A DNA stretch of 64,000 nt, taken from Escherichia coli. Its GTDB lineage: Bacteria > Pseudomonadota > Gammaproteobacteria > Enterobacterales > Enterobacteriaceae. Shown here one piece after another: positions 61,694 through 62,581 of this stretch (positions are counted from its first letter, which is position 1; each line of letters begins with the position of its first letter). Under the pieces are notes generated by a model, which saw nothing but the letters and a program-made list of their open reading frames with translations, ran no database searches and had not been told where the DNA came from. The stretch lies in the NCBI RefSeq assembly GCF_024700885.2, contig NZ_CP117016.1. One strand, given 5' to 3'. Position numbers and translations under genes: made by a program.

Positions 61694-62581
61694 TCAGGAG
61701 AGATATTTATCGAACCATTTCAGCGTCCTTTGCCAGGCAAGATCGGCGGCAGATTTGTCATAACGGGGCGTGGAATCATTATGGAATCCGTGATTAACCC
61801 CCGGATAGATATACGCCTCATAGACCTTATTATTGGCTTTCAACGCCGCCTCGTAAGCAGGCCATCCCTCGTTGATTCGGGTGTCCAGTTCCGCGTAGTG
61901 GAGTAGTAAAGGCGCTTCAATCTTCGCCACATCGGCGGTGGGTGCCTGTCGACCATAAAACGGCACCGCGCAGGCCAGTTCCGGATACGCGACAGCCGCC
62001 GCGTTCGATACGCCACCGCCATAGCAAAATCCGGTAATACCCACTTTGCCTGTCGCTTGCGGATAGCGTTGCATAAACTCAATTGCGGCAAAGAAATCAT
62101 TCATCAGTTTGGTTGGATCAACCTGCTGTTGCAGCTCACGACCTTTATCATCATTACCCGGATAACCTCCAACGGAACTTAAGCCGTCAGGTGCCAGGGC
62201 GATATACCCCGCCTTCGCTACTCGCCGTGCCACATCTTCGATATACGGATTCAGTCCACGATTCTCATGCACCACCACCACGGCTGGTGTTTTGCCGCTC
62301 ATCTTCGCGGGCTTCACCAGATAACCACGTACGTCACCGTGACCATTTGGCGAAGGATACGTAATGTACTCAGCAACAATTTCCGGGTCGGTAAACTCCA
62401 CCTGGGTCGCCCATGCGTAATTTGGCCTGAGCAAATCAAACAATGCTAATGCCGTCATCCCACCCACCGCATACTTCGCTGCCATATTGAGGAACTCACG
62501 TTTCGAAATTTTCCCGTGAGCGTAATAGTCGTAGTAATCCAGCAACTCTTGTGGGAAATCTTTGGCGGTTAAACGCGGCAT
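61694..62581 (-). CDS. yghX: Dienelactone hydrolase-family protein, apparently intact
   Basis: 295 aa alpha/beta hydrolase with nucleophile elbow in GFCYGG; uninterrupted frame. Confidence 0.75.
   Translation of the reverse strand: MPRLTAKDFPQELLDYYDYYAHGKISKREFLNMAAKYAVGGMTALALFDLLRPNYAWATQVEFTDPEIVAEYITYPSPNGHGDVRGYLVKPAKMSGKTPAVVVVHENRGLNPYIEDVARRVAKAGYIALAPDGLSSVGGYPGNDDKGRELQQQVDPTKLMNDFFAAIEFMQRYPQATGKVGITGFCYGGGVSNAAAVAYPELACAVPFYGRQAPTADVAKIEAPLLLHYAELDTRINEGWPAYEAALKANNKVYEAYIYPGVNHGFHNDSTPRYDKSAADLAWQRTLKWFDKYLS

Follow-up and report, generated by a model that had tools for sequence, protein, structure and literature searches.

An Intact yghX Allele in Escherichia coli and Its Pseudogene Counterpart in K-12

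In Escherichia coli K-12 MG1655, yghX is annotated as a pseudogene (b4658) and its 5' stump as a separate gene, yqhI (b4755). The 47 amino acid YqhI protein, which has the sequence MPRLTAKDFPQELLDYYDYYAHGKISKREFLNLAAK followed by CGRRDDGISVV, was detected in K-12 by means of epitope tagging (PMC6001520). The gene yghX, its pseudogenization in K-12, and the crystal structure of an orthologue are already on record, and there is nothing unusual in them. The literature on yghX deals almost entirely with the locus as an integration site in the metabolic engineering of K-12. An old proposal that YghX may be a cPHB polymerase, made from its GXCXG motif, came without supporting data (PMC3709699), and we have not adopted it.

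When the YghX protein described here was searched against the sequences of the PDB, the first match was 4ZV9 (residues 59–294, E = 2e-160), followed by 3F67 and Pseudomonas dienelactone hydrolases (1DIN and others). The 4ZV9 protein, from E. coli O157:H7 Sakai, is a YghX orthologue that is 97% identical to ours over residues 59–294 and has the same Cys-Asp-His triad; the O157 orthologue differs from our protein by V69F, D83E, S135N, and Y229F in the mature part and by M33L, R52K, and W57L in the N-terminal segment. The purified O157 enzyme (EcoDLH) had no detectable phosphotriesterase activity, its active-site cysteine was modified or oxidized in the crystal, and that study did not establish what the enzyme does natively (bioRxiv 10.1101/2025.10.30.685675). 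This phosphotriester assay, with its negative result, is the only activity assay of a YghX orthologue that we found in the literature. The next-closest solved relative is 3F67, a putative dienelactone hydrolase (DLH) of Klebsiella pneumoniae (KpDLH; E = 7e-24), which has a G-F-C-W-G-G elbow and the same triad as YghX but is only ~28% identical to it and belongs to a different subfamily. KpDLH has a weak promiscuous phosphotriesterase activity, whereas EcoDLH has none (bioRxiv 10.1101/2025.10.30.685675). ClcD of Pseudomonas (1DIN; carboxymethylenebutenolidase, EC 3.1.1.45) has the same Pfam family and fold as YghX, and its Cys, Asp, and His residues and the Glu of its H/Q-E motif align with those of YghX, although the two proteins are only ~25% identical. 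ClcD is cytoplasmic, lacks an N-terminal extension, and acts in a chlorocatechol pathway that is absent from the yghX locus.

Here we describe yghX in a stretch of 64,000 nucleotides of E. coli DNA (the window; contig NZ_CP117016.1). Taken as a whole, the evidence is best explained if the gene at 61694..62581 on the minus strand is an intact and selectively maintained yghX allele, and we hold this to be very probable.

Gene Structure, Fold, and Active Site of YghX

The ORF listing of the window contains, at 61694..62581 on the minus strand, a single ATG-started frame of 295 codons plus a stop codon, with no internal stops. A strong Shine-Dalgarno sequence, GAGGAG (62589..62594, minus strand), can be read 7 nt upstream of the ATG. 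The gene lies between yghW (61288..61575, minus strand) and gpr (62738..63778, plus strand) and adjoins the hyb operon (hybO, 59981..61099, minus strand). The order hybO-yghW-yghX-gpr is shared by the window, K-12, and E. coli strain 1190, and annotation comparison indicates that the position is orthologous; it is also the position of b4658 and b4755 in K-12. The protein is 100% identical to the annotated yghX product of strain 1190 (WP_001137771.1), and the allele was found 100% identical in several independent isolates. A simple sigma-70 scan of the 156 bp yghX-gpr intergenic region gave no match on the strand of yghX; in the promoter and terminator scan, the total of matches did not exceed that for shuffled sequence, so that the scan is of little use as evidence.

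The full-length protein matches the NCBIfam model NF041440 (hydrolase_YghX, "YghX family hydrolase") with 586.1 bits against a cut-off of 460, with residues 3–294 aligned to profile positions 1–292. Residues 84–294 match the Pfam DLH family PF01738 (E = 3.1e-48; 164.7 bits against a gathering threshold of 21) and cover profile positions 1–217 of 217, and residues 1–36 match the Pfam family "YqhI-like" (PF23678, E = 5e-21). An AlphaFold2 model built on the family alignment (mean pLDDT 96.9, pTM 0.94) superimposes on the crystal structure 4ZV9 with an rmsd of 1.0 Å and gives a target-normalized TM-score of 0.83 against 1DIN. By its profile matches YghX is a member of the DLH family, and the model gives it the α/β-hydrolase fold.

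The nucleophile elbow of YghX is G-F-C-Y-G (residues 184–188), and the serine version GxSxG is not present; the predicted nucleophile is a cysteine, as in dienelactone hydrolases. In a HMMER alignment with the ClcD variant 4U2C, Cys186 aligns with position 123 (a serine in this C123S variant), Asp233 with Asp171, and His264 with His202, and Glu106 of the H-E-N-R-G motif aligns with ClcD Glu36. The corresponding codons are TGC at 62024..62026 for Cys186, GAC at 61883..61885 for Asp233, and CAC at 61790..61792 for His264, all on the minus strand. A family alignment was also made from the window protein and 30 full-length homologues (36–67% identity) that came out of a search of 1.84 billion representative proteins. 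Asp233 does not vary among these 31 sequences, and Cys186 and His264, both nearly invariant, are conserved in at least 90% of them. We looked for an active-site substitution and saw no active-site defect in the ClcD alignment, in the 31-member family alignment, or in the AlphaFold2 model; a disabling substitution in the window allele is ruled out by the triad alignment, family conservation, and allele comparison. A sequence-only reading of the window had described an uninterrupted DLH-family gene of 295 codons with the α/β hydrolase nucleophile motif, and these results bear it out, with exact coordinates and a cysteine as the predicted nucleophile; the strand, which that reading left unstated, is the minus strand.

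By homology with Pseudomonas ClcD, Cys186 would attack the carbonyl of an ester, lactone, or thioester and form an acyl-thioenzyme, which would then be hydrolyzed by a water molecule activated by His264, itself oriented by Asp233. The gene neighborhoods of two distant homologues were inspected for a conserved operon that might serve as a clue to the substrate, and none was found across them: one homologue is flanked by a phosphoesterase and a response regulator, and the other by a TonB-dependent receptor and glycosidases.

Two features of the flanking DNA were observed in passing. In the chicken isolate GPEC60-33-648 (NZ_CM142764.1), yghX is intact and the adjacent gpr is annotated as frameshifted, so small lesions near the locus vary among strains. 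The interval from the yghX stop to the yghW start contains, at window positions 61588..61613, a perfect palindrome with 11 bp arms (TCGCTATATAT-nnnn-ATATATAGCGA), which ends 4 nt ahead of the yghW Shine-Dalgarno sequence. Its arms do not differ between K-12, O157, and the divergent Rb-50 allele, and the 4 nt loop varies. The absence of a T-run behind it sets the palindrome apart from a typical terminator; it might serve yghW as an operator or a 5'-UTR hairpin.

Frameshifts in K-12 and the State of yghX across E. coli

Pairwise alignment of the yghX coding sequences of K-12 and the window (~96% nucleotide identity) showed that K-12 has 33 substitutions and two deletions, and so the disruption that the sequence-only reading had stated for the K-12 counterpart is real. 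The 2 bp deletion corresponds to the TA at 62472..62473 (minus strand; coding positions 109–110, codon 37), and the 1 bp deletion to one C of the CC at 62111..62112 (minus strand; coding positions 470–471, codon 157). The window has the bases at both sites. The first 36 codons of K-12 are those of the window (62474..62581, minus strand, the segment that matches PF23678) except for M33L. After the 2 bp deletion, the K-12 frame reaches a stop 11 codons on and yields exactly the 47 amino acid YqhI; translation therefore ends after 47 amino acids and the hydrolase is not made. Judged by this exact match, YqhI, and with it the Pfam family named for it, is the N-terminal stump of YghX. We rejected the idea that the 1 bp deletion compensates for the 2 bp deletion, as the intervening 120 codons are out of frame and the stop comes after 11. 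The start codon of yghX in the window is the one used for YqhI in K-12, and the detection of tagged YqhI indicates that both the promoter and the start codon are still functional in that strain.

We examined how common these lesions are. The exact 61-mer spanning the 2 bp junction of K-12 is present in at least 1,247 of 5,426 complete RefSeq E. coli genomes, and that spanning the 1 bp junction in at least 1,197; in most of the remaining genomes the alignment includes the extra bases at both junctions. About 77% of the 5,426 complete genomes thus lack the K-12 deletions. The frequency of 23% for the K-12 allele is an overestimate, since K-12 derivatives are over-represented among complete genomes, and intact yghX probably has a larger share in nature. 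Of 39 full-length hits sampled at even spacing, 28 were of intact length, 9 were shorter by 3 bp, and 2 were shorter by 2 bp. The carriers of deletions include isolates from blood, pig, sheep, and sewage. The 2 bp deletion occurs alone in H1827/12 (human blood) and F5 (wastewater), both deletions occur in UMNF18 (porcine) and Res13-Lact-PEB14-36 (pig feces), and yghX is flagged by PGAP as "frameshifted" in all four. The loss of yghX is a natural polymorphism and not a laboratory artifact.

The existence of wild carriers and of alleles with only the 2 bp deletion indicates that the pseudogene formed stepwise in a natural lineage and was inherited by K-12. The 2 bp deletion at codon 37 would have come first, leaving only the 47 amino acid YqhI stump, and the 1 bp deletion at codon 157 second, both before laboratory domestication. 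When the three missing bases are restored, the K-12 allele is one amino acid apart from the intact allele of ECC-1470, which indicates that the decay in K-12 is recent.

Where yghX is intact, it is under purifying selection. Pairwise Nei-Gojobori dN/dS values among the window allele, five intact E. coli alleles, and the repaired K-12 allele are 0.03–0.10; between the window allele and the six others they are 0.04–0.08, at dS values of 0.11–0.32. These figures, together with the strong Shine-Dalgarno sequence, the translation from the same start codon in K-12 (PMC6001520), and the occurrence of the identical gene in several independent isolates, leave little room for a frame that is intact merely by chance or only recently inactivated, that is, for a silent gene that is unexpressed or useless. 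The lack of a sigma-70 consensus upstream on the yghX strand and the presence of four private substitutions in the window allele would suit such a gene, but these exchanges are conservative, none of them touches the triad, and the family varies at the positions concerned, and we regard it as very improbable that the gene is silent. The reverse history, in which K-12 has the ancestral state and the allele of the window was secondarily repaired or horizontally replaced, draws on the unusual divergence of the window allele (identity of at least 99% across the region in only 21 of 5,425 genomes) and on the dS values, which would suit recombinational import. Against it, all 30 of the diverse homologues in the family alignment are colinear through both K-12 indel sites, the intact length is found across several divergent allele classes as well as in the majority of genomes, the restored K-12 allele is nearly identical to intact alleles, and intermediates with a single deletion occur. 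By these comparisons, this history is effectively refuted.

From the same comparisons we conclude that intact yghX is the ancestral and majority state in E. coli, where it is routinely annotated. The sequence-only reading had proposed that the window preserves ancestral gene content lost in the laboratory strain. For yghX this proposal stands, as the colinear homologues and dN/dS values indicate, except that the loss is not peculiar to the laboratory strain: the same frameshifts are carried by large numbers of other genomes, wild isolates included. The source strain of the window has a functional-looking yghX, and K-12 and about a fifth of complete E. coli genomes have a decaying copy. Conserved in E. 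coli and under purifying selection, YghX is an enzyme with a solved structure, the function of which K-12-based genetics cannot address. It also follows that the neutrality of yghX as a "neutral" integration site in K-12 is not automatic in strains in which the gene is intact.

The private substitutions of the window allele are L33M, K52R, L57W, and E83D, three of which fall within the signal-like N-terminal segment. Compared with alleles of other E. coli lineages, dS at yghX reaches 0.32 (for strain Rb-50), and the range as a whole is, we presume from typical values, high for E. coli; it could reflect old allele classes or recombination at the locus.

The N-Terminal Segment of YghX

Residues 1–58 of YghX (62408..62581, minus strand) form an extension that has no counterpart in ClcD-type enzymes. 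The 31 family sequences share the consensus LYDxYxHxxxxRRxFL...AxA. The twin arginines are present in 25 of the 31; E. coli and its close relatives have K-R in their place, so that the site in the window reads S-K-R-E-F-L (Lys27-Arg28) and departs from the Tat consensus S/T-R-R-x-F-L-K. Conservation reaches at least 90% at both Arg28 and Phe30. Downstream lies an h-region (residues 33–52 in the window, with a mean Kyte-Doolittle value of 1.02), followed by Pro53, A56-W-A58, and TQ. Across the family the h-region is rich in A, G, S, and T, has a mean Kyte-Doolittle value of ~1.0–1.4, and has Pro at −6. The h-region and the A-x-A cleavage-site pattern are conserved in the family, and this is the pattern that we took to mark a Tat signal.

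We somewhat favor the view that residues 1–58 are a cleaved Tat-type export signal, so that YghX would be a periplasmic enzyme. The composition of the h-region is typical of Tat signals, with its conserved A-x-A and Pro at −6, and one homologue has an 11-residue insertion directly after AxA. The 4ZV9 construct begins right after A-x-A, and the mature domain therefore folds and crystallizes without residues 1–58. Natural Tat signals with K-R exist, for example that of Salmonella TtrB. The window protein matched neither of the curated Tat models TIGR01409 and PF10518, but two RR-bearing homologues scored 16.4 and 15.8 bits with TIGR01409, just below its cut-off of 16.7. A literature search for DLH enzymes as twin-arginine or Tat substrates returned nothing relevant.

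Other observations speak against an export signal. AlphaFold2 models residues 1–60 with a pLDDT of 93–96, within a chain of high overall pTM, as three short helices (11–21, 27–37, and 44–51), and in this the predicted structure is unlike a typical signal peptide. Upstream of the twin arginines, the position-specific motif L-Y-D-x-Y-x-H is conserved (Y20 and H22 in 25 of the 31 sequences each), and the N-terminal segments have a mean pairwise identity of 0.28–0.38, little below the 0.41 of the core. These observations, the K-R of E. coli, and the failure of every curated Tat model to exceed its cut-off would suit a helical module, made up of the YqhI-like part and the helices behind it, that is retained and packs against the hydrolase core of a cytoplasmic or membrane-associated YghX, with the RRxFL motif a vestige like the remnant Tat motif of NarG. 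Set against the Tat-typical h-region, the conserved A-x-A and the insertion behind it, the near-threshold TIGR01409 scores, and the crystallization of the domain without the segment, a retained module seems to us a possible but rather doubtful explanation. A further idea, which we think unlikely, is that the segment is a specialized Tat-targeting region with a structured, conserved n-region that could act, for example, as a docking site for a chaperone or as an intramolecular partner of the folded enzyme, with YqhI as its orphan. If this were true, the YqhI of K-12 would be a still-expressed orphan module, and a Pfam family would have been named after the remnant of a pseudogene. Whichever reading of the segment is right, the identification of the gene as an intact yghX stands.

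The Wider Window

We compared the whole window with K-12 and strain 1190 by blastn. The sequence-only reading had noted an intact yghO-yghT island, and the window indeed carries 8.4 kb (37843..46231, from the 5' end of yghO to the 5' end of yghQ) that is replaced by IS5 in K-12. According to the annotation of strain 1190, the genes in this segment encode a fatty acyl-AMP ligase, an NAD-dependent epimerase, an acyl carrier protein, a serine palmitoyltransferase, LptG and LptF permeases, a YtfJ family protein, and one hypothetical protein; from these annotations, the segment looks like a lipid biosynthesis and export island.

The same reading had stated that the secretion-system deletion in the window is not that of K-12, and this too was found to be so. 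The type II secretion cluster of the window (T2SS-beta, sslE-linked) is missing ~5.0 kb relative to strain 1190, a loss that covers most of pppA, all of gspS2, gspC, and gspD, and the 5' 750 nt of gspE. The deletion was noted at 22051..22188 and its flanks (~19354..26829), where only ~65 nt of pppA are left beside a truncated gspE ORF (21306..22109). K-12 lacks window positions 16889..22188, which hold the 5' part of gspL, gspK through gspF, and the gspE remnant of the window; judged against the strain 1190 cluster, it also lacks gspD. As the window has a secretion-cluster deletion of its own, it is not simply "ancestral," and in this respect the proposal that it preserves ancestral gene content has to be limited.

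Window positions 40000..64000 are 100% identical to E. coli MLI114, differ by one or two changes per 24 kb (judged by bit score) from strain 1190 (canine), E700025, NA3664, and OY754421, and share 99.9% identity with O166:H15 strains. An identity of at least 99% to this segment is reached by only 11 of the 5,426 complete genomes, which indicates that the window comes from a sparsely sampled lineage. The allele in the window is in a minority in its sequence and ordinary in its content. Upstream of ~22 kb, the identity of the window to strain 1190 falls to 95%.
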